Assembly (NCBI GenBank): GCA_050011875.1
Contig: JBEKIG010000005.1
Coordinates: forward strand, 32,001 to 96,000
Source: Nitrososphaeria archaeon
Lineage (GTDB): Archaea > Thermoproteota > Nitrososphaeria > JACIWG01
Length of the DNA stretch: 64,000 bases
Direction of reading: 5' to 3'
Shown: positions 8,375 through 32,690 of the stretch, one piece after another
How the letters are laid out: every line of letters begins with the position of its first letter
Numbering within the stretch: position 1 is the first letter of the stretch
The notes under the pieces: model-generated
The model's input: only the letters and a program-made list of their open reading frames with translations
Databases searched by the model: none
Told to the model about the DNA's origin: nothing
Translations under genes and position numbers: made by a program

Positions 8375-8725
8375 TTACCTGTGGCTATGTCGTTCCGCTC
8401 CCTTTTTGCCTCGGTTGATCACTAGGATGCTGGTGAAGCACACCACCAACGCTGTGAAAACAATTATCGGCAGAAGTGTGACGTTAACGCTACTCACTTT
8501 AGGTGGTGTAGACGTTGAGGTTGTAGATGCTATTGTAAGCGGGGGAACATAGACACCTCCACCAGACGGAGCTGAAGAAGTTGAAGTTGTTGTGGCTGTA
8601 GTCGTTGAGGTAGTTGTTGTCGGAACAGTTGTAGTCGTGGTTGAAGTAGTTGTGGATGAAGGGGTTGGAGTTGAGCTGTAAACGTAGGGCAGAACCATCT
8701 TGTCGAGTTTTGGCGTCTCCATCAT
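8375..8725 (-). pseudogene. C-terminal remnant of a surface protein (Thr/Ser linker + TM anchor)
   Basis: No signal peptide, and upstream frames contain stops. T/S-rich stalk, hydrophobic helix, basic tail. Confidence 0.65.
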
Positions 8726-8829
8726 CCGTGGAGTTGCGTCTCTGGGGGTATCAACGTATGAGGATTTCTACGAATCATGACCAGAAATGTTTGCTCAAGT
8801 CTCTTTCTGATGCCCTGCACTCTTCTTCA

Positions 8830-9339
8830 TACCTATTCGGAAGCTTAAGCGTGTGGAATCTAATAATCAGCCAAGGAAGGACAGAGGTCTACATGAAACT
8901 AAATCTTATATCTGTAGCATTAGGTCTTCCCCTAGGCTTAGTATTGATTCCTAGGCTTGGAATAATCGGCTTAGTCGTAACAGCGCTCATAGACGGAATA
9001 CCAAGCCTGATCGCGATGCTCTGGTACGTTGGAAGGCATTATGCAGCAACAGTAGACTGGGTGTCTTCAACAAAAATACTTTCAGCCTCCACAATCTCCG
9101 CCCTAGCCGCATACCTCATCTTATCCCAGCTGTCTCTTCCAAGCTGGATGGAACTTATCATCGGAGCCACAGTCTTTCTAACAGCATACATAACAGTAGC
9201 CTCACTCATAGGAGCAGTAAACAGGACAGACATCGAAAACATAAAAGAGATGCTGAAAGAACTTGGCCCATTATCAAAGTTGCTCAGCCCACCATTAAAC
9301 CTCATCGAAAAACGGATGCTGAAAATCCATAAGACTTGA
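8830..9339 (+). pseudogene. 3' fragment of oligosaccharide flippase (Wzx/MOP family)
   Basis: QGRT..MKLNL..LIPRLGIIG..STKIL pattern of a flippase C-terminus. Only about 170 aa present, with no proper N-terminus. Confidence 0.75.
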
Positions 9340-9480
9340 CACAAAGCGCGCACGCAGCCCCACAAAGCACAGAAACTAAGCTTCTTTATTATGGCGTTGG
9401 TTATGGCAAATCAAAGGGCACCTTCATTATCCCCATTTCTGACATTTTCACCCCAACCCCTTAAAGACCGTTAAAGAACT

Positions 9481-9990
9481 CGTAACTCGTAAATTTACGC
9501 GCACATATCAGTTTAACTGGGAAAAGAGGGAAACAAGCGTAAAATAAAGGTAAGTGCCTTAAACTGCTTCATGCAATTACGGAAAGCTTGGCGTAATTTA
9601 CGCCATTTACGACACTTTACGACAGCGTAAAAAGTTTACGTGTTTTACGTAATTACGGCATTTTACGCAGCGTAAAAAAAAGTTTTACGACATTTTACGA
9701 TCTTTACGACGATTTTACGGGGCGTAAAATATGGGTTTACGATGTTCTATGTGCGCGTAAAAGTCATTTTACGGCGACGTAAAAAAAAGTTTACGATGAT
9801 TTTACGACATTTTACGGCGACGTAAAAAAAAGTTTACGATGATTTTACGAGGTCGTAAAGGCTCTTACGGGAATTTACGGGACGTAAAAGACTGGGTTAC
9901 GGTATTTTGTATGCTCGTAAAAATCATTTTACGGGCCAGTTTACGGGAAATTTTATGGTCGATAAAAAAAGTTTATAGGATTTTATGGGA
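9481..9990. repeat. Phased array of TTTACG/CGTAAA hexamers
   Basis: Hand count: about 25 TTACG and 14 CGTAA, mostly 9-12 bp apart. Perfect 43-bp tandem at 9765-9850 and a ~160-bp higher-order repeat (9714 vs 9874). Confidence 0.95.
9511..9573 (+). repeat. ~63-bp cassette, copy 1
   Basis: 47/63 identical to 10176-10237 by hand alignment. Confidence 0.85.
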
Positions 9991-10175
9991 CTATAGGCTT
10001 TAGGTTATAAAGGCTCTGATTTAACTAAACCTATTAGATGAGCCTTACTTTTTTTTGATTATTTATCTTAAACTTATAATCTTCTGAACTGCTCCCTAGT
10101 CGAGCCTCTATATCTTTTTGTTTATCCCGACAAGTTGACAGAATCCTATAAACTATAAAATAAAGGCGCTTAAGA

Positions 10176-10237
10176 GTTTAGCTGGGAACAGAGGGTAAAT
10201 AGGGGAAAATATAGGAAACTGTTAAGAACGCTTCATG
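10176..10237 (+). repeat. ~63-bp cassette, copy 2
   Basis: GTTTAGCTGGGAACAGAGGG...GCTTCATG, a direct repeat of 9511-9573. Confidence 0.85.
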
Positions 10238-10280
10238 GGGTTAAGCACTTTAATAAGGGAATAAAAAAGGTATGCACATG

Positions 10281-10392
10281 TCATCATCAGTCATCATCAA
10301 CGGTCATCATCAGCCATCAACACCCGTCATCAGCCATCATCAGCCATCATCAGCCATCATCAGCCATCATCAGCGTTCATCGTTCGTCATCA
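10281..10392 (+). repeat. 10-bp CAGCCATCAT tandem array
   Basis: Four perfect units at 10331-10370 plus degenerate flanking units. Confidence 0.95.
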
Positions 10393-10430
10393 TTTGACCA
10401 GTTGACGTGGTTGACGCCAAACTTATATTC
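10393..10430 (+). promoter_or_regulatory. Putative promoter: three TTGAC boxes followed by a BRE/TATA-like element
   Basis: TTTGACCAGTTGACGTGGTTGACGCCAAACTTATATT, about 35 nt upstream of ATG 10461. Confidence 0.45.
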
Positions 10431-10460
10431 TACTCTAATGATATGGTATCATTGGCAGAA

Positions 10461-11991
10461 GATGGAAACTGTTGAAAATATAGTCAGGAAGCTTCTTGAT
10501 CTTGCCAAGAAGAAGCCGCTTGGGCCTGAAGAGCTAGAGGAAGCGAAAGAATGCATGAGGATCCTTCGGCGAAATGGTTTTACAAGCTACGAAATATCCG
10601 AATTAAGTGGTCACGCTTGGGACGCGTCGACGGTGAGAAATTATGTGGTCGGCGTCAAGGTTGTGGACTCTAAGGCCAGAGCTAGGGTAATCGGCCTGTT
10701 CGTCAAAACGATGGAGGAAGATCTCTACCTTGACGAAGTGGATGGGGCCCTTTCCATAAAGTCATCTTTGGACCGAGAGGGAGCTAACATAGAAGACTTC
10801 GCCGGTCTACTGAAGTTAGCGAAAGGTTCGAAGGTCAGCTCAGGCGAGCTGGTAAAGATGTACAATGATTTAAAAGCTTCAAACCTCAACGTTGACCAGC
10901 TAAAACAGGTACTGGAATATAAACTGGGCTTTGAATCATCCAAACTGACATTGGACAACCTAAAGAAAATACGGGACCTGTTGATAAAATTTGGTAGGTT
11001 TAACGATGTCGTAGAAGCCATAACGGCCTACGTCGATCTCAAAGCGCTTAAACAGGAAGTTGAAGACATAAGCCTGGAAAAAACTTCTCGAGAATCAGAA
11101 GTTAAAATGTTAACTAAAGAAATCCTTATTCTTAATAACAAGAAAGAAGAGCTTAAGGCCCCATTTAGCAGATTGGAGCATCTAAGAGGAATAGGCTTTA
11201 ATGATGCAACTCTAGTTGGATTAGCTAAAGCCTGTGATAAGCTAGGTGGTGTAGATGCTGTCCTGAAGGCGGTTGACAGCTTCTCTGACCAGAGGGTGAT
11301 AGAGGCAAGAACCTCTGAACTAGAACGTGTCATGGAAAACCTGGAAATCAAGATAAAGAGATTGGATGTGGAAAACTCTCAGATAATTGAAGGCGTGAGA
11401 ACGTGCAGGGAGCTGATCTTCACCCATGGGTTCAATACAGGTGACATCGTAGGTGTGATGACAGCTGCCAAGAGGTATGGTAACTCAATAGATGTGCTAA
11501 GGGCGGTTGAAGACTATGGCAAGCTTAAGGCCATCCAAGATAAGGTCAACGAACTAGAGGGCTTAAAAGGAGGACTTGAGAAAGAGATAGTACAGCAGAA
11601 GGAAGAAACTAAAGACCTACGTCAAAAGGAGGAAGCCCTAACTAGGGGGGTAAGGGATTACTCCAACCAACGAGATGCTCTCAGGAAAAACGCGGATAAA
11701 TTTGATGAAGAGCTTAGAGAGGCAAAGGTGTTCTTGGCTCTAAGAAGGTACCCTTCGGAGCTGAAGATAGACAGCCTGCAATATTTGGCTCAGGCGATCA
11801 GAAGCTTGGCCACAAACGCTAAGAGCCTTGGAATAAACCAGACGTTCACGCTTAAGGATATCGTTGAGCCAAAACACAAAATCATAAACTTCACGTGGAA
11901 GATAGAGCTTTCGGATGTTCTAGGCTGGGCGAACACGGCCCTGACAACGATCATCGTGAAAACATCGCTGAATCCATCAGGTGCCAGATAA
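10461..11991 (+). CDS. N-terminal HTH protein with three helical/coiled-coil repeats
   Basis: GFTSYEISELSG..WDASTVRNYV HTH, followed by three ~80-aa repeats with heptad segments. No Walker A motif. Confidence 0.8.
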
Positions 11992-12823
11992 CATGAGCTT
12001 GGAAAAGATCGAACAGCATATAAAGGAACTTGAAGCGCTAAAATACTATAGCGGAACCAAGCAGGAAAGAGATGAAGCTTTGAAAAAAGTAGGCGAACTA
12101 GAGAGCGTCAAGACCGAACTAGAGAAAAGGATAGCCGACCTTGAGCAGATAAAGGTTACTTCAGAGGGGAAGACGATAAAGGAAGCCGAAGAAGCCTTCC
12201 TAAGGGCTGAGCAAGAGGAGATAAGCAGAAAAGCTGAAGAAAAGTCCAACGAAAAATATGAGAAATGGCGAAAGGATGAGAAACCTAAGGAGGTATTCGA
12301 TTCGTCTGTCAAAGAGCTCAAGACGATCCTGCAAAGCCTATCTGAAGCCCCATACCAAGCAATTCCTTCTAAGTTGGCACAGGCCGGATTAGATGTTGAA
12401 GTTAAGAAGGCATTAAATGTAGAAGTTCAGAAAAGGTTACATGTGGAATTCAATAAGAGAGTCGAAGCGAGGGCGCACGAAACCGCTTTAAAATGGTTCG
12501 AAAATTGGAAGAAATCTGAGTTAAATAGATGGCATAATGAAAAAATAATGCCTGAAATAGCAAGATTGGAAACAGTCTTCAGCTCAAACATCATGACCGT
12601 ATTGAGGGACACCGACTTCGAAATAACCTGTAACAAATGTGACCAAATATCTCAGATAAAATTTACAGGTCAAATGATTTCAAACCTAATCACAAAAGGG
12701 AAATCCAATTTGCCATGCATCAACCCTAACTGCAACGACCCATGGACAGGCAGACATCAGATTCAGATCAACCTCGCAGATCTCATAGATTCCATGATAA
12801 CGCTCAAGAGTGGATATCCATAA
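11981..12823 (+). CDS. Coiled-coil protein with C-terminal Zn-finger
   Basis: Overlaps the upstream stop. E/K-rich heptads, then CNKC...CINPNC. Confidence 0.8.
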   Translation: MPDNMSLEKIEQHIKELEALKYYSGTKQERDEALKKVGELESVKTELEKRIADLEQIKVTSEGKTIKEAEEAFLRAEQEEISRKAEEKSNEKYEKWRKDEKPKEVFDSSVKELKTILQSLSEAPYQAIPSKLAQAGLDVEVKKALNVEVQKRLHVEFNKRVEARAHETALKWFENWKKSELNRWHNEKIMPEIARLETVFSSNIMTVLRDTDFEITCNKCDQISQIKFTGQMISNLITKGKSNLPCINPNCNDPWTGRHQIQINLADLIDSMITLKSGYP

Positions 12824-22563: not shown

Positions 22564-23925
22564 TTGGAGAAGAAATCAAGCCTAATTTTCGGATTGTTTA
22601 TTATAGCTGCAATTCTATGTGCGTTTTCAGCCAACGCTTTAGTTACACCTTGGACGATGTTCCGCCACGACGCTGCGCATACTGGATACTCTACCCAAAG
22701 CCCTTTTGTTGGAGGCGTCGTTTATTTCGGCTCAGATGACCAAAAAGTTTATGCTACTAGTGCTTTTATCTGGAGTTTCCCTACTGGAGGTGTTGTGGAA
22801 TCTTCTCCTGCTGTTGTTGGGGGTGTCGTTTACGTCGGCTCATTTGACGGCAATGTTTATGCTTTGAATGCTTCTAGTGGTGCTAAAATCTGGAACTTCA
22901 CTACTGGAGGCGCTGTGGATTCTTCTCCTGCTGTTGTTGGGGGTGTCGTTTACGTTGGCTCATATGACAAAAATGTTTATGCTTTGAACGCTTCTACTGG
23001 TGTTAAACTTTGGAGCTTTCCTACTGGAAACATTGTGTATTCTTCTCCTGCTGTTGCTGGAGGGGTTGTTTACGTTGGCTCATATGACAAAAATGTTTAC
23101 GCTTTGAATGCTTCTACTGGTGCTTTTATCTGGAGTTTCCCTACTGGAAACATTGTGTATTCTTCTCCTGCCGTTGTTGGGGGTGTCGTTTACGTTGGCT
23201 CAGGTGACAATGTTTATGCTTTGAACGCTTCTACTGGTGCTTTTATCTGGAGTTTCCCTACTGGAGACGGTGTGTATTCTTCTCCTGCTGTCGCTGGAGG
23301 GGTCGTTTACGTCGGCTCAGATGACCACAATGTTTACGCTTTAAACGCTTCTAGTGGTTCTGAAATCTGGAGCTTCCCTACTGAAAGCGCTGTGGAATCT
23401 TCTCCTGCTGTCGCTTTAGGCGTCGTTTACGTCGGCTCATATGACTACAATGTTTATGCTTTGAACGCTTCTAATGGCGCTAAGCTTTGGAGCTTTCCTA
23501 CTGGAAGCTATGTGGAATCTTCTCCTGCTGTCGCTGGAGGGGTCGTTTACGTCGGCTCAGATGACCACAATGTTTATGCTTTGAACGCTTCTAATGGTGC
23601 TAAGCTTTGGAACTTCACTACTGGAAGCGCTGTAGAATCTTCCCCTGCTGTTATTGCGACTTCTACTACTACTACTACGACTACTACTTCTACTACTAGC
23701 ACCACTACTTCTACTACTACTACGACTACTTCTACTACTACTAGCACCACTACTTCTACTACTACTACGACTACTTCTACTACTACTAGCACAACTACTT
23801 CTGTACCAGTTGGTGGAGTGTTGACGTCAGGTGGTATAATTGGTATGGAGGGGTTGCTGTTGGCAGCTTTGGTCGCAGCATTCTGTGCAGCAACGGTAAT
23901 TGTGGCTAGGAAACTTAAGAAATAA
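22564..23925 (+). CDS. PQQ-like (BamB-type) beta-propeller surface protein with Thr stalk and TM anchor
   Basis: Signal peptide, W.MFRHD, ~40-aa SSPAV..VYVGS.D.NVYALNA.G..W repeats, poly-Thr, PVGG, TM. Confidence 0.9.
   Translation: MEKKSSLIFGLFIIAAILCAFSANALVTPWTMFRHDAAHTGYSTQSPFVGGVVYFGSDDQKVYATSAFIWSFPTGGVVESSPAVVGGVVYVGSFDGNVYALNASSGAKIWNFTTGGAVDSSPAVVGGVVYVGSYDKNVYALNASTGVKLWSFPTGNIVYSSPAVAGGVVYVGSYDKNVYALNASTGAFIWSFPTGNIVYSSPAVVGGVVYVGSGDNVYALNASTGAFIWSFPTGDGVYSSPAVAGGVVYVGSDDHNVYALNASSGSEIWSFPTESAVESSPAVALGVVYVGSYDYNVYALNASNGAKLWSFPTGSYVESSPAVAGGVVYVGSDDHNVYALNASNGAKLWNFTTGSAVESSPAVIATSTTTTTTTTSTTSTTTSTTTTTTSTTTSTTTSTTTTTTSTTTSTTTSVPVGGVLTSGGIIGMEGLLLAALVAAFCAATVIVARKLKK
22770..23655 (+). 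repeat. ~120-bp intragenic tandem repeats (7 full plus partials)
   Basis: Near-identical nucleotide units encoding propeller blades. Confidence 0.9.
23658..23802 (+). repeat. (ACT)n-rich coding repeat
   Basis: Encodes the Thr/Ser stalk. Confidence 0.9.
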
Positions 23926-25410: not shown

Positions 25411-28038
25411 ATGAATAATAAACATTCGATAATGGCTTTATCGGCGCTTATCATATTACTAGCACCGTCAGTAACAGCATTTGCATACACCACGATAACC
25501 AATCCTGTTCCACCTGCCTCTGATCCAGTAAGCTGGTACAAGACAGTGAATGGGGTTCTAACCAGCGACTATTACACACTATACCCATACAAACTACAGA
25601 GCTTAGACATAGGATTTTCAAAATACGGTGAACTGATAAACTCAACTGGTGGCGGACCAGGAGTTGTCAAAGTCGGTATGCAGTATCCAGGTCATGATGT
25701 AGTAAATACATACGACCAATCTCTAGGAACTTCACGAGATCCATTCGCTAATGAGCTCGTTTCAGAGAACTACTGGGTAAACGGATGGCTAGCCAACATA
25801 ACATACAGAGACAGATTATTCGAAGGAACACCCTACCCAGCGTACAGGGTTGTCTGGGCTTTTGCACTCTATTCAGATGGTATAACCTACGGTGGACCTT
25901 GGAATAATATGCAGGCATCTCCAACCGTCGGCGTCGGAGGAAGACAGACAAACGGGAACGCATCGACTCTACCGATACAGATACTCTACGATGGCCCAAG
26001 GGAGACGATAGCACTTTTGGTAACTAACATAAACGACACACAAAAACTGTCGTCAGGACTTGTTGAATCATGGCCAGTAGCACAACTACAGATCACGATA
26101 ATATTCGACAAAGCCAAGAAGGAAATAGTCGAATACAAGGACATGAAGCTCAAACTGGAGACAAAGGTACTAGACGGCTTAGCGAACATACAATTCGGTG
26201 ACAGAGGAGAATGGGACTTAGGTCCTCCAACTGGCCCGAATAAACTAAACAGCTACGCAGAATTCTACCCAAGTGCCGCGGCAGTAGGACTAAATACTGT
26301 CTATGGTGCAGATTGGGAGAATGTCACAGGGACCGAGGGCGGCGCAGCGAATCCGCCATACAACGGAACGACATGGTTGCTACGTGACCTTGTACAGAGC
26401 TTTACAGCTTCATCCGGACAAACCAATGTCAATCTAACGCACGATGATTACGAAAACACTGAAGCAGTATTCGTAAACGGAATATATCAGCTTCCGGGTA
26501 CAAACTATGTAGTAGAAAATCCCAATGCAGCAGGTACTGCTAACAGAACTATCTACTTCCTCAAGGCACTGAATTCAGGCGACACTGTTACGGTTCAGTA
26601 CAAGTACGTATTCGAGGAGTTCGACAATGATTACAGCCTCGCGCAGATCATATCAGCCGACAAAACATACGTTGGCGCAGTAGCATACTGGCCACAGGTG
26701 TCAGACTGGACAGTTAACGGATGGGATGCAAGGCTAACCGCACTTTTCAACGTTCAAACTAATATTATGCCCACAGAACCTAGCATACCATTTGTCTCAG
26801 GAGAATGGGATATCGCTCTTAGCATTGGACAGTCGTTCAGAGGCGTTACCGTATACGTATTGACGGATAACGTGAACGGAACTGTAACACCGGAGGGTAA
26901 GCCAGCACACATAGACAGCGAAGTACAGTACCAGCTCAACGAAGTCTTCAACCCATGGGACCTGAATATGGCAGCAGACAAGAAGGCCAGCACATGGCTT
27001 GAATGGAAGCCCCAAGATGAAAGTAGCATTACACTAACAAATGCTCCATTCCTGTTAGGAACATGGAACGGATACAATACACAAGCTGAACGCGTAATGG
27101 ACGAAGATAACAACGGAGCGCTTCTCGTCAGAGGAGTAGACTATACTATATCCATTAATGGTACAGGTTATGCTACACTAACAGCAATTTCAGATGCATT
27201 CTACTTTGACTTACTCAAGATAGAATATTCGACAGGTACTACTGTCATGCCTACTGGTGCTGCTCCTAGCGCAGATGCTTATAGTCTAAAAACAGCAGGA
27301 GGACGCTACGAGTGGATTGTTGTAGGAAGAGACGCCGCTTCAGTTGACTCAGCAGGCGCAGCCATGATAGCAAAATCGTTGTGTTTCAAAAATGTAACGT
27401 TAGGTATCACAGGAGAAGACATGATGGATCCAGTATTAGCTAACTCGATACCAAACGTGATGTATCAGTTTGGAACAGGAAGCTCAATGGCAAACTACAA
27501 GGATTCAATGGGCAGGGCAGCGATCAAAGACGATTGGTGCACTCGATGGCCAATTACAACATCTAACATGATTGGCGTAGGAGGACTACTTGCCAACATG
27601 GTCACCTACTACACAAACGACTTCACAACCGCATTCTATGGTAACCCAACATACACACCAACAACTAGTAAATGGTATGGCGCGATAGGTGCAATATCAT
27701 GCTGGAGCAAGAACGCATACGTTGACACATCAACAGACGGCTACGCAGTTATCAGCACATATCAGGACATAAACGGAACGACATTCTTAGTCGTTTGGGG
27801 ACTGCAAGGCAGAGACACATACTACGCTTCACAGTGGATATATGGCAATGACTGGAACCAAGTACTAGGCACAAGCCCAGGAATATTCACTCTACAAGGA
27901 CTGAACCCTGGAACGACAAGTCTAATACTAGACATAAGCTACGGCACGACTACTTTCACACAACATCATCCTGTCATCACAATAGTAGAGAACCTCGGAA
28001 CGATAAGCGAAAAGTTACCGACACATCCAGATCCATAA
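25411..28038 (+). CDS. Probable major S-layer protein
   Basis: ~875 aa with a signal peptide, many NxT/S sequons and the VVGRDAASVD S-layer-like motif. Distinct biased codon usage, with its own promoter and terminator. Confidence 0.7.
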   Translation: MNNKHSIMALSALIILLAPSVTAFAYTTITNPVPPASDPVSWYKTVNGVLTSDYYTLYPYKLQSLDIGFSKYGELINSTGGGPGVVKVGMQYPGHDVVNTYDQSLGTSRDPFANELVSENYWVNGWLANITYRDRLFEGTPYPAYRVVWAFALYSDGITYGGPWNNMQASPTVGVGGRQTNGNASTLPIQILYDGPRETIALLVTNINDTQKLSSGLVESWPVAQLQITIIFDKAKKEIVEYKDMKLKLETKVLDGLANIQFGDRGEWDLGPPTGPNKLNSYAEFYPSAAAVGLNTVYGADWENVTGTEGGAANPPYNGTTWLLRDLVQSFTASSGQTNVNLTHDDYENTEAVFVNGIYQLPGTNYVVENPNAAGTANRTIYFLKALNSGDTVTVQYKYVFEEFDNDYSLAQIISADKTYVGAVAYWPQVSDWTVNGWDARLTALFNVQTNIMPTEPSIPFVSGEWDIALSIGQSFRGVTVYVLTDNVNGTVTPEGKPAHIDSEVQYQLNEVFNPWDLNMAADKKASTWLEWKPQDESSITLTNAPFLLGTWNGYNTQAERVMDEDNNGALLVRGVDYTISINGTGYATLTAISDAFYFDLLKIEYSTGTTVMPTGAAPSADAYSLKTAGGRYEWIVVGRDAASVDSAGAAMIAKSLCFKNVTLGITGEDMMDPVLANSIPNVMYQFGTGSSMANYKDSMGRAAIKDDWCTRWPITTSNMIGVGGLLANMVTYYTNDFTTAFYGNPTYTPTTSKWYGAIGAISCWSKNAYVDTSTDGYAVISTYQDINGTTFLVVWGLQGRDTYYASQWIYGNDWNQVLGTSPGIFTLQGLNPGTTSLILDISYGTTTFTQHHPVITIVENLGTISEKLPTHPDP

Positions 28039-28313: not shown

Positions 28314-28865
28314 TTAGGGCGGCGGAACTTTTAAGGAGGAACCGACAATGATTAGAAGCCAGCTTCCACCTTGAGTCGTTTTCCCTCTAGCTACAATGGA
28401 CATTGGATAGGTATCATTCGGGACACCGCTTGGGATAATGACTGTTAAATTTATACTTGTAGAATCACCTGGCTGGAGCGTTACCGATGTCGGCTTGAAG
28501 TCAGCTACATATCCTGGGATATTTGAATGCGTCTCAAGATCAAGTACTTCGCTAGTATTCAGCTTTGTCGCTTTCAACGTAATAGACACATTGACCGATC
28601 CACCACTATCTGAAATGTTGACAACGGCTGTGCTTAGCAAAACGTCGAAATCTGGGTTTGCGAAAGGGGGTAGTCCTCCCATAGTCGATATTTGTGTTTG
28701 CTGGCTTAAAACAGTTGAATTGAGCATTGAAACCTCGGATGTGAGACTGGAAACTTGGCTTTCATAGCTTCTTATTTGCGGTTCATACATCGTATATCCT
28801 AAGCCGTAACCACCAAAACCTACAAGTATAACGACTATCAGTAAGGCGACCATACTCATCTTCAA
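28314..28865 (-). CDS. Membrane-anchored protein with short coiled coil and Ig-like domain
   Basis: N-terminal TM, heptads, PTSVTLQPG..NLTV..P..GTY-like motif. Confidence 0.75.
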   Translation of the reverse strand: MKMSMVALLIVVILVGFGGYGLGYTMYEPQIRSYESQVSSLTSEVSMLNSTVLSQQTQISTMGGLPPFANPDFDVLLSTAVVNISDSGGSVNVSITLKATKLNTSEVLDLETHSNIPGYVADFKPTSVTLQPGDSTSINLTVIIPSGVPNDTYPMSIVARGKTTQGGSWLLIIVGSSLKVPPP

Positions 28866-32076: not shown

Positions 32077-32427
32077 TTATTCGACACACATTATATTAAC
32101 GTTTTTTTTAGAGTATGTTAAGACCAATTCCCAAACCTTGTAACTGCTTCTTCCCAGCTGGTTACCTATTTCCCTATAGCTCAAGCCCTTACTTCTAAGC
32201 TCGAGCGCCTTCCTTCTTAGCTCGTCGTCTCCCTTTTTCCTTGGCATGATAACGTTATATGATAACGTTATATAAGAACATTTTATAATAACGTTTGACA
32301 AAAAAACTGATGCCCAAATATATCCGTATGCCCGTTTATATCCGTCAGACATGAGCTCGTATATTCTGCTCCGTCTTAAACCGAAGTCCCTTTCAAGCTG
32401 CTTTATTATATCTGTGCTCTCCGTCAT
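32077..32427 (-). CDS. Small HTH protein(s); alternative start at 32247
   Basis: AGGAG SD before ATG 32427 (IIKQLERDFGLRRSRIYELM). Second HTH ALELRSKGLSYREIGNQLGRS from ATG 32247. Possibly truncated. Confidence 0.65.
   Translation of the reverse strand: MTESTDIIKQLERDFGLRRSRIYELMSDGYKRAYGYIWASVFLSNVIIKCSYITLSYNVIMPRKKGDDELRRKALELRSKGLSYREIGNQLGRSSYKVWELVLTYSKKNVNIMCVE
32249..32296. promoter_or_regulatory. ATAACGTTAT palindromic operator-like sites overlapping a TATA box
   Basis: Perfect copies at 32249 and 32262, a near-copy at 32288, and TTATATAA about 25 nt upstream of ATG 32247. Confidence 0.6.
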
Positions 32428-32492
32428 ACTCCTGTCCCTTTTGAGCGCTACTAACATAGGGTACCCTATTGTCCAGTTTGACAATTTTTAAA

Positions 32493-32560
32493 GTGATGGC
32501 GGATGATGGACGCTGATGATGGGTGTTGATTGTTGATTATGGCAGATGATGACTGATGAT
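32493..32560 (-). repeat. CATCA array homologous to 10281-10392
   Basis: The reverse complement shares ATCATCAGTCATCATC, ATCAACACCCrTCATCAGC and CAGCGTyCATC. Confidence 0.85.
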
Positions 32561-32690
32561 TTTTTCAAAACATAGCAGTTTTCATTGTTGCTTTTTGTTT
32601 ACCCACAGATGTTTGTATTTATTGAATTCTTTTTTTGAAAGAGGAACCTTTAACTTTTTATAATGATGTGCCTTTAGTAAGCCTCACCGT

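Follow-up and report, generated by a model that had tools for sequence, protein, structure and literature searches.

The locus at positions 9481-12823 of a 64,000-nucleotide stretch of a Nitrososphaeria genome raises the question of what the arrays of short DNA motifs that lie directly upstream of two coupled genes are for, and which protein reads them. The stretch (the window) corresponds to positions 32001-96000 of contig C5 of the source genome, G000, a metagenome-assembled genome (MAG) of 2.64 Mb in 119 contigs with a GC content of 40.8%. A preliminary description had taken the arrays and the two genes, termed P1 and P2 here, together as one partition locus. The comparison with homologous loci points to a different division, in which the array next to P1 is probably an operator read by the P1 protein, and the distal array belongs to a family of dispersed repeats.

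The non-coding stretch (9340-10461) runs from the stop codon of the upstream open reading frame (ORF) at 9339 to the start codon of P1 at 10462, and its sole ORF of at least 50 aa is a 54-aa frame inside the repeats. It holds three arrays, comprised of TTTACG/CGTAAA (array 1), a small TTTATRG array, and a CATCATCAGC array with a 10-bp period (array 2), with P1 and then P2 directly downstream. The features of the locus are as follows:

9496-9580, + strand: leader copy 1, a variant with an embedded CGTAAA (nhmmer match C5:41496-41580, E 3.6e-13)
9488-9945, both strands: array 1, 32 copies of TTTACG/CGTAAA with a local spacing of ~10-11 bp; an independent module
9952-10013, + strand: small TTTATRG/TATAGG array; a long array of this motif follows another leader, at C6:5719
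10014-10159, + strand: spacer kept in a second genomic copy at C14:~72850-73000; the adjoining leader has 93% identity (blastn)
10160-10244, + strand: leader copy 2 (nhmmer match C5:42160-42244, E 8.4e-21)
10282-10392, + strand: array 2, ~10 copies of CATCATCAGC with period 10 on the sense strand; proposed P1 operator
10393-10461, + strand: promoter-proximal stretch with a GTTGACG doublet and, by reading, a putative A/T-rich TATA-like box ~35-40 nt before the ATG
10462-11991, + strand: P1, 509 aa; predicted four-helix helix-turn-helix (HTH) head (1-66), helical repeats and three ~95-aa repeats
11993-12823, + strand: P2, 276 aa; N-terminal coiled coil and C-terminal CxxC...CxxxxC plus His domain (the ORF opens with GTG at 11981)

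The P1 protein, read from ATG 10462, has the same length (509 aa) as the database entry P0001. An exhaustive search gave 302, 189 and 65 representatives of the P1 family at E≤1e-3, 1e-10 and 1e-30, respectively (a word-index search gave one relative only), and the relatives are mostly 470-560 aa long and alignable over residues 4-400. AlphaFold 2 (AF2) modelling of the whole protein from a 49-sequence alignment gave a predicted local distance difference test score (pLDDT) of 81; residues 1-185 folded alone gave a pLDDT of 92 and a predicted template modelling score (pTM) of 0.71. In the model, the head is followed by six shorter helices and then by three units of two short helices and one long helix. 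These ~95-aa units are true internal repeats, with mutual matches at E 6e-9 and 4e-4. The top solved-structure matches of the head were Spo0J/ParB (1vz0_A; Z 6.0, root mean square deviation (rmsd) 3.5, 59 aa) and, jointly, KorB (1r71_A; Z 6.0, rmsd 2.5, 54 aa), both weak, and the next were RptR and DnaA domain IV (Z 5.2-5.3 for DnaA). Although the scores are weak, the top fold matches are all DNA-binding HTH domains and consistently point to such a function for the modelled head. A viral structure library gave only weak DnaA-C-terminal-like HTH matches (E≥0.057), the fold searches with whole P1 were dominated by long-helix matches, and a PDB profile search with P1 returned coiled-coil noise only.

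No curated family was assigned to P1 or P2 by Pfam, PHROGs, NCBIfam or PADLOC, whose matches to the two proteins were all sub-threshold or of coiled-coil type; an example is SMC_prok_A, at 21 bits against a cutoff of 729. Within PADLOC, the P1 matches were to the SMC-like JetC and LmuB, at coiled-coil level only, with none for P2, and ESM Atlas gave no usable match. Across 49 P1 members, further examples of such sub-threshold or coiled-coil-type matches were DUF7310, in 14, and MerR_1, in 4. The automatic JGI names of some relatives ('SbcCD ATPase subunit', 'chromosome segregation ATPase') reflect coiled-coil similarity only, the proteins being without an ATPase motif. There was no Walker A motif in P1, P2 or the next ORF.

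The ORF of P2 opens with GTG at 11981 and so overlaps P1, while homologs and database entries begin with 'MSLEKI', which corresponds to ATG 11993, 2 nt past the P1 stop codon; the two genes are tightly coupled with either start. P2 was comprised of an N-terminal coiled coil of variable length and a conserved C-terminal CxxC...CxxxxC...H domain. It has exactly four cysteines (217, 220, 246 and 251), which were invariant in six of six homologs; a word-index search with P2 gave five relatives. Twelve P1-carrying loci were compared, among them those of G001, a second genome of the same genus (its C10 locus is L057). A P2-like gene lies directly after P1 in eight of the twelve (G000 C5, C17 and C18; G001 C10 and C6; L056, L058 and L059) and is missing there in two (G000:C3, G001:C5); the remaining two were not judgeable, due to a contig end (L055) or masking (L060). 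A complex prediction for P1 with P2 scored 0.00, which is no evidence for or against a complex. The pair reads as a self-contained archaeal two-gene module, conserved but patchy. These results bear out the anatomy given in the preliminary description, which had noted a coupled HTH/coiled-coil-repeat and coiled-coil/Cys4 gene pair that lacks Walker A motifs.

Array 2, the proximal array, was delimited by Tandem Repeats Finder (TRF) at 10282-10392 (period 10, 9.0 copies, 84% matches). It contains ten register-shifted CATCATCAGC copies, whose start spacings are all 10 bp except for one of 13 bp. The preliminary description had proposed that arrays upstream of homologs would covary with the HTH recognition helix, and for the proximal array such covariation was found. 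Loci were also recovered with a narrower P1 alignment; the single P1 sequence matched nothing in the genome contigs. The source genome carries four P1 genes (C5, C17, C18 and C3), three of them followed by P2, and each of the four has, at most ~1.7 kb upstream, one of the 38 array regions that k-mers define in the genome. The motif of the array varies with the P1 sequence around its second HTH helix, three helix types going with three motifs. The 'AW(D/S)(A/S)S..R' loci ('AWDASTVR'-type) carry CATCA(A/T)C arrays in three of three cases, with 9, 13 and 6 copies in the window copy, G000:C18 and G001:C5, respectively, against at most 2 at other loci. The 'W(S/R/K)E.(T/S)(V/I)K.YTRG' loci ('GGWSEPTVK'-type), whose sources are metagenome contigs and MAGs of Nitrososphaeria, Nitrososphaeraceae, Ca. 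Methylarchaceae and Bathyarchaeia, go with (T)TATCC arrays. The 'KLSERTIK' type is known from the single locus G000:C3, which has eight TGCACC and four ATTGCCTTTAA copies.

The 'W(S/R/K)E.(T/S)(V/I)K' class was analysed by the density of ATCC. Against a background of 3000 random 1.2-kb pieces of the source genome, whose 99.9th percentile is five ATCC per 110 bp, six of its ten loci reach or exceed this value on the sense strand; further loci of the class are L056, with a borderline four ATCC, and G000:C17, with seven ATTATC. In four loci of other HTH classes, ATCC never exceeded two. The spacing within the ATCC clusters was 8-13 bp or about double that in eight of the eight loci examined. Only 10 segments with at least five ATCC were observed in 223.6 kb of locus DNA from outside the source genome, and six of these are sense-strand segments no more than 1.05 kb upstream of a GGWSEPTVK-class P1. 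Without exception, the strand of the array motif is the sense strand of P1, including loci where a divergent winged-HTH (wHTH) gene stands between array and P1. In the window, L035, L055, L056, L058 and L059, the distance from the array end to the start codon of P1 is 10-70 bp, and in loci that lack the wHTH gene the array end sits where the promoter is expected. An inverted GGAT cluster was present ~150-200 bp upstream of the ATCC cluster at G000:C17 and L055. Within the source genome, ATTATC arrays occur only at the P1c locus, and the sole exact triple-TATCC array of G001 is the one upstream of P1.

The ATCC-type arrays persist on the P1 sense strand, without any leader of the kind described below, across lineages in which P1 has fallen to ~30-50% identity. 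Neutral intergenic DNA would not stay similar over such divergence. As the array stands directly before P1 with no wHTH gene in L055, L058 and L059, P1 (or P2) is the likeliest reader. Together, these observations provide good comparative evidence that P1, or less likely P2, reads the proximal array. Homologs thus carry sense-strand phased arrays with a motif that follows the HTH type, which makes the proximal array the probable cognate multi-site operator of P1, as in KfrA, Par or RacA. A diverged P1-P2 locus on a metagenome contig (L034:1-820) has three upstream arrays (CTAGACA, AGTCCA(R)C and TTACCAT) around a small reverse-strand ORF.

Several observations weigh against assigning the array to P1. 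The link between array and HTH type rests on three motif classes, and as related loci share labels, it represents few independent events; the ATCC background was taken from the source genome only. Three of the ten GGWSEPTVK-class loci have no clear array (none in L033, a partly masked sequence in L060 and a borderline one in L056). Array 2 lies directly behind a mobile-looking leader copy, and its position could be an accident of insertion. CATCA(A/T)C arrays are present at five P1-free non-coding sites of the source genome (C5:3369, C5:64560, C16:17076, C16:27764 and C22:4838), and a TGCACC array away from P1 was identified at C16:28771; these may be extra P1 sites or sites of another factor. 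On the protein side, the fold matches of the P1 head are all below the Z 8 caution line, and Foldseek with P1 found nothing at E≤0.001.

Three of the P1-free CATCA-type arrays (C5:64560, on the minus strand at ~32400-32600 of the window; C5:3369; and C16:27764) lie within a repeated element of ~400 bp. A perfect 14-bp palindrome, ATAGGGTACCCTAT, follows each array of this element and is itself followed by a small ORF in the window copy. In addition, an ORF-poor stretch of ~2.8 kb at C16:27600-30400 contains a CATCATCA array (27740-27880) and a GGTGCA/TGCACC array (28700-28790) ~1 kb apart, whose motifs are those of two different P1 paralogs. By reading, it adjoins thermosome-like and HypA-like genes.

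Array 1 has a different character. On both strands together, TTTACG/CGTAAA occurs 65 times in the window against 30.4 ± 5.6 expected (at least 65 in 0 of 100 shuffles), and 32 of these copies fall in 9488-9945, 21 on the + and 11 on the − strand. Neighbouring copies are spaced by 9-12 bp or by approximate multiples of 11, and the best period is 10.7 bp. The long-range phase coherence was modest to borderline (the + copies have an R of 0.61 where the random 99th percentile is 0.60; the − copies have 0.71, with that percentile at 0.78). TRF reported periods of 9, 10 and 22 and an exact 43-bp duplication at 9765-9850. The spacing of roughly one helical turn described previously was recovered in both arrays. 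Array 1 is the sole dense TTTACG cluster in the 2.64-Mb genome. Elsewhere in the window, TTTACG recurs at steps of 117-120 bp (22829, 22949, 23069, 23189, 23306, 23426 and 23546) inside a 453-aa ORF (22564-23925), which indicates a tandem protein repeat of ~40 aa.

The non-coding stretch holds two leader segments (9496-9580 and 10160-10244) of ~85 bp each, which are ~75% alike and each precede one array. Using nhmmer, 19 leader copies were identified in the source genome at E≤0.004. The others are at C2:144051; C3:17455 and 24946; C4:1717 and 3905; C5:133714; C6:5366-7137 (four copies); C11:17305-18108 (three copies); C14:73000 and 73997; and C18:3489 and 17230. In 13 of the 19, an array follows within 300 bp, and at least ten motifs were read, namely TTTACG, CATCATCAGC, CATAAAG, TTTATAGG, ACGAGGGTATA, GGAATAGG, TGAACA, TTTAAAG, TTAAGTA and AGGGAAAT; many contain phased A/T tracts. 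Up to four modules of leader plus array stand in tandem, for example at C6:5366-7137. An alignment of 14 copies shows conserved boxes, and RNAalifold found no consensus pairs in it on either strand. Rfam gave no match to the leader, the only signal being sub-threshold C/D-box noise inside the CATCA array. The leader points toward the next gene at some sites and converges on a gene at others, with no consistent rule. An ORB-like origin element and a promoter with a leaderless ATG were considered as readings of the leader and set aside; the ORFs that follow CTTCATG downstream of leaders are not conserved. With up to two mismatches, the leader core pattern matched 13 times in G000, once in G001 and not at all in 399 other genomes of the class; the reversed pattern, used as a control, gave one match in total. 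The modules are a genus-restricted family of dispersed repeats.

G001:C14 has a homologous leader and TTTACG module that shares both the embedded CGTAAA variant and the array end; it lies between sugar-kinase-like and SDR-like genes with no P1 nearby. As the second genome has the module without P1, array 1, like the leaders, does not belong to the P1-P2 system; for array 1 the comparison identifies it as an independent dispersed leader and array module that happens to lie upstream of P1 and P2. The earlier assignment of the arrays to the gene pair is supported for the proximal CATCATCAGC array and not for the TTTACG array, and the proposal of two cognate proteins for two arrays found no support.

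Further observations were made on the leaders. The leader sequence reads like a degenerate, 10-bp-phased RGGAA array. Three paralogous genes for an HTH-like protein of ~195-228 aa with the N-terminus 'MTLEQVKAEVLKLVD...' (C14:73000-73808, C3:24946-25768 and C6:6369-7137) each stand behind a leader and a TGAACA array, with the array reaching into the start of the annotated ORF; they are a second case of leader, array and DNA-binding gene together. At C4:1717-3990, two leader and array modules flank an ORF pair that reads like the TnpA and TnpB of IS200/IS605.

Of 401 genomes of the class, eight match the P1 profile, namely both genomes of its own genus and 6 of 78 of a second family; none of the 224 genomes of the largest family does. 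The profile was also found in none of 400 other genomes sampled from the phylum at E≤1e-20, a weak negative as three candidates per genome were scored. Members of the family occur in Nitrososphaeria, Nitrososphaeraceae, Ca. Methylarchaceae, Bathyarchaeia and Archaeoglobales MAGs. G001 has three P1 loci, two of them broken or truncated, and the broken copies identified overall are those of G001:C5, G001:C6, G183 and G237:C56. Neither 72,556 plasmid records nor 50,697 phage records gave a relative of P1, and IMG/VR gave none of P2.

In C17, C18, G001:C10 and G237, P1 is immediately preceded by a divergent wHTH gene (of HVO_A0114/MarR/TrmB type by Pfam at C18), which is absent in the window copy, L055, L058 and L059. 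Besides P1 and P2, no gene family was common to at least 3 of 17 P1 loci. A regular-expression search for the ParA-type motif gave 0 of 244 ORFs at these loci, with five unrelated generic Walker A motifs only. In two Nitrososphaeraceae MAGs, the genes on either side of P1-P2 read as pyrophosphatase-like and tRNA-synthetase-like and keep one order, and very large ORFs (996 and 1717 aa) adjoin the P1 locus at C17. The starts of C17 (1-350) and C18 (1-249) appear to hold one split gene that reads as a 3-methyladenine glycosylase; if so, the P1-P2 cassettes of C17 and C18 are probably a few kb apart and point apart.

Around the window locus, Pfam identified a glycosyltransferase, an epimerase, an FMN reductase, PfkB and enolase, and no rep, integrase or parA, in agreement with the preliminary description. 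There were no tRNA genes in positions 1-30000 of the window, and no long direct repeats flanking the P1-P2 cassette were found in the window. The locus is present in contigs of three peat-metagenome runs, one of them possibly its source; read 'joints' at the locus, considered as excision or as an allelic change in copy number, were rejected, as they arise from paralogous leader and array copies. The flanks of the cassette are non-syntenic in G001, where they are on different contigs, so the region is variable, and nothing marks an integrated element. A G001 array match upstream of the PfkB ortholog was discounted as spurious, since it lies inside a coding gene. The ORF adjoining the arrays (8650-9339) matches only positions 374-496 of the 506 of TIGR01695, the C-terminal quarter of a MurJ/Wzx-type flippase (E 0.004). 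It is probably a truncated flippase-like gene, which hints at rearrangement at that spot.

An autoregulatory multi-site operator is the minimal reading of array 2. We favour, at about even confidence, a reading in which the P1-P2 operon is bound by P1 at its phased array and autorepressed, with P2 in an extended nucleoprotein complex. P1 would be a sequence-specific DNA binder, with the HTH head carried on a long helical, coiled-coil body that would allow oligomerisation. It would bind the ~10-bp-phased direct repeats before its own operon (CATCATCAGC, ~10 copies at 10282-10392) cooperatively and on one face of the helix. This binding would repress the P1-P2 promoter and build the extended complex, in which P2, with its coiled coil and zinc ribbon, would be an obligate partner. 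A bolder version, which we regard as improbable, makes P1-P2 an ATPase-free archaeal system for DNA tethering or segregation with a clade-specific 'address'. Paralogs would then read their own arrays through a diversifying HTH helix and bind further arrays of the same motif (such as CATCATCA and TGCACC at C16:27.6-30.4 kb), giving several orthogonal tethers per cell, and the leader and array modules would be landing pads for other small HTH proteins.

Three other explanations were weighed against autoregulation by P1. The arrays could be unrelated to P1 and represent sites of other factors, curved DNA or slippage-prone mobile repeats, with arrays and P1-P2 both accumulating in variable regions. 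The ~19 leader copies in the source genome, 13 of 19 with an array and with more than 10 motifs in all, would fit this, as would the irregular orientation of the leaders to genes, the phased A/T tracts and the same-motif arrays away from P1. It accounts poorly, however, for the retention of ATCC arrays on the P1 sense strand in leader-free lineages at ~30-50% P1 identity, and for the confinement of ATTATC arrays in G000 to the P1c locus and of the one exact triple-TATCC array in G001 to the region upstream of P1; we consider it unlikely. The proposal of the preliminary description, that 9481-12823 as a whole serves an integrated or relic mobile element as its centromere-like partition locus, with both arrays bound by both proteins for ATPase-free segregation, now looks improbable. 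While the phased, iteron-like arrays without an ATPase do resemble the parC, tubC and pSK1 par centromeres, and the patchy family (8 of 401 class genomes), the several P1 copies of differing specificity within one genome, the broken copies, the non-syntenic flanks in G001 and the truncated flippase-like neighbour could be consistent with such an origin, the TTTACG module occurs without P1 in G001. Moreover, the locus has none of the integrase, rep, tRNA or flanking direct repeats that were looked for, the plasmid, phage and viral collections gave no relatives, P1 and P2 are the only families shared by at least 3 of the 17 loci, and the pair keeps its gene order in the two Nitrososphaeraceae MAGs.

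The same patchy, multi-copy and pseudogene-rich distribution, together with the divergent wHTH regulator that is often attached and the very large ORFs beside the C17 locus, could also suggest a conflict system (defence, abortive infection or addiction) with a repeated operator, in which the coiled coils would serve sensing or effector assembly. As PADLOC gave only the coiled-coil-level JetC and LmuB matches and none for P2, and neither protein has a recognisable enzymatic domain, this appears very unlikely.

Among known systems, P1 resembles KfrA/KfrC, pSK1 Par and RacA in its putative working principle and is not their homolog. KfrA and KfrC belong to the broad-host-range plasmids RA3 and RK2. 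KfrA of RA3 is described as an HTH head with a long alpha-helical, self-associating tail, its operator as five 9-bp direct repeats over its own promoter, and KfrC as an alpha-helical protein from the KfrA operon that binds KfrA (PMC7783346). P1 is similar in its predicted HTH head and long helical tail (AF2; fold matches of Z 5-6), in arrays of short direct repeats at its own promoter, a likeness at the sequence level only, in the absence of an ATPase from KfrA itself as from P1-P2, and in having a helical partner in the operon (KfrC; P2). It differs in that no KfrA family matched P1 at E≤1 or stood among the 25 of 121 families listed for the 49 members. P1-P2 is archaeal and chromosomal, whereas KfrA is on a plasmid beside ParA/ParB (IncC/KorB). 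In addition, P1 is larger, with three internal ~95-aa repeats, its arrays are longer (8-13 copies), and P2 carries a zinc ribbon.

On pSK1, repeats lie upstream of par, and RacA has many chromosomal sites. Par of pSK1 is described as a partition system made of a single protein, RacA as a tether between nucleoid and pole, and Par and RocS as having a C-terminal DUF536 and an amphipathic membrane helix (PMC11500499). Like P1, pSK1 Par, RocS and RacA combine an HTH with a coiled coil and have no dedicated ATPase. In contrast, P1-P2 is a two-gene system of an archaeal host, the Firmicutes systems being single-protein, and no membrane or pole anchor was identified in it. Pfam found no DUF536 or amphipathic-helix module in P1 or P2, and none is among the 25 of 121 families listed for the 49 members.

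In the centromeres parC/ParR of R1 and tubC/TubR, the promoter of the binder's operon contains or adjoins direct repeats of ~10-12 bp that are phased to the helix. The P1-P2 arrays, being phased ~10-12-bp direct repeats beside the operon, are alike in this respect. However, neither a ParM- or TubZ-type motor gene nor a third conserved gene was found at the 17 P1 loci, and P1 is predicted to be an HTH with a coiled-coil body, not a ribbon-helix-helix or small wHTH protein. The top fold matches of the head are to ParB and KorB, at a Z of 6.0 that is below the Z 8 caution line; P1 has no match to ParB_N, the CTPase domain, and there is no ParA-type motif nearby. SegAB, AspA-ParB-ParA (pNOB8) and HpaAB are described as archaeal site-specific DNA binders that act by their own sites and are implicated in segregation. 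All have a ParA-type Walker ATPase, as opposed to 0 of 244 ORFs at the 17 P1 loci.

Literature searches, with supplementary files outside their scope, gave no description of the P1 family, its arrays or the leader and array modules, and no mention of DUF7310 or DUF7491, the only Pfam names that touch some P1 members. P1-P2 is unusual in being archaeal and widespread, in forming a two-protein unit with a zinc-ribbon partner, and in having a readable code of HTH and motif with orthogonal paralogs per genome. Within the same literature, the leader and array modules are an undescribed archaeal intergenic repeat. For annotation, the ATPase names in the JGI records of P1 relatives are corrected, as no ATPase motif is present. 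The archaeal segregation or organisation systems found in the literature searches are all of ParA type (SegAB, AspA-ParBA and HpaAB), while the layout of P1 is KfrA/Par/RacA-like. P1 represents a sizeable unnamed archaeal family (189 representatives at E≤1e-10) with a putative protein-DNA specificity code that can be read directly, and P1-P2 offers a way to study how DNA might be tethered or silenced in archaea in the absence of a motor.

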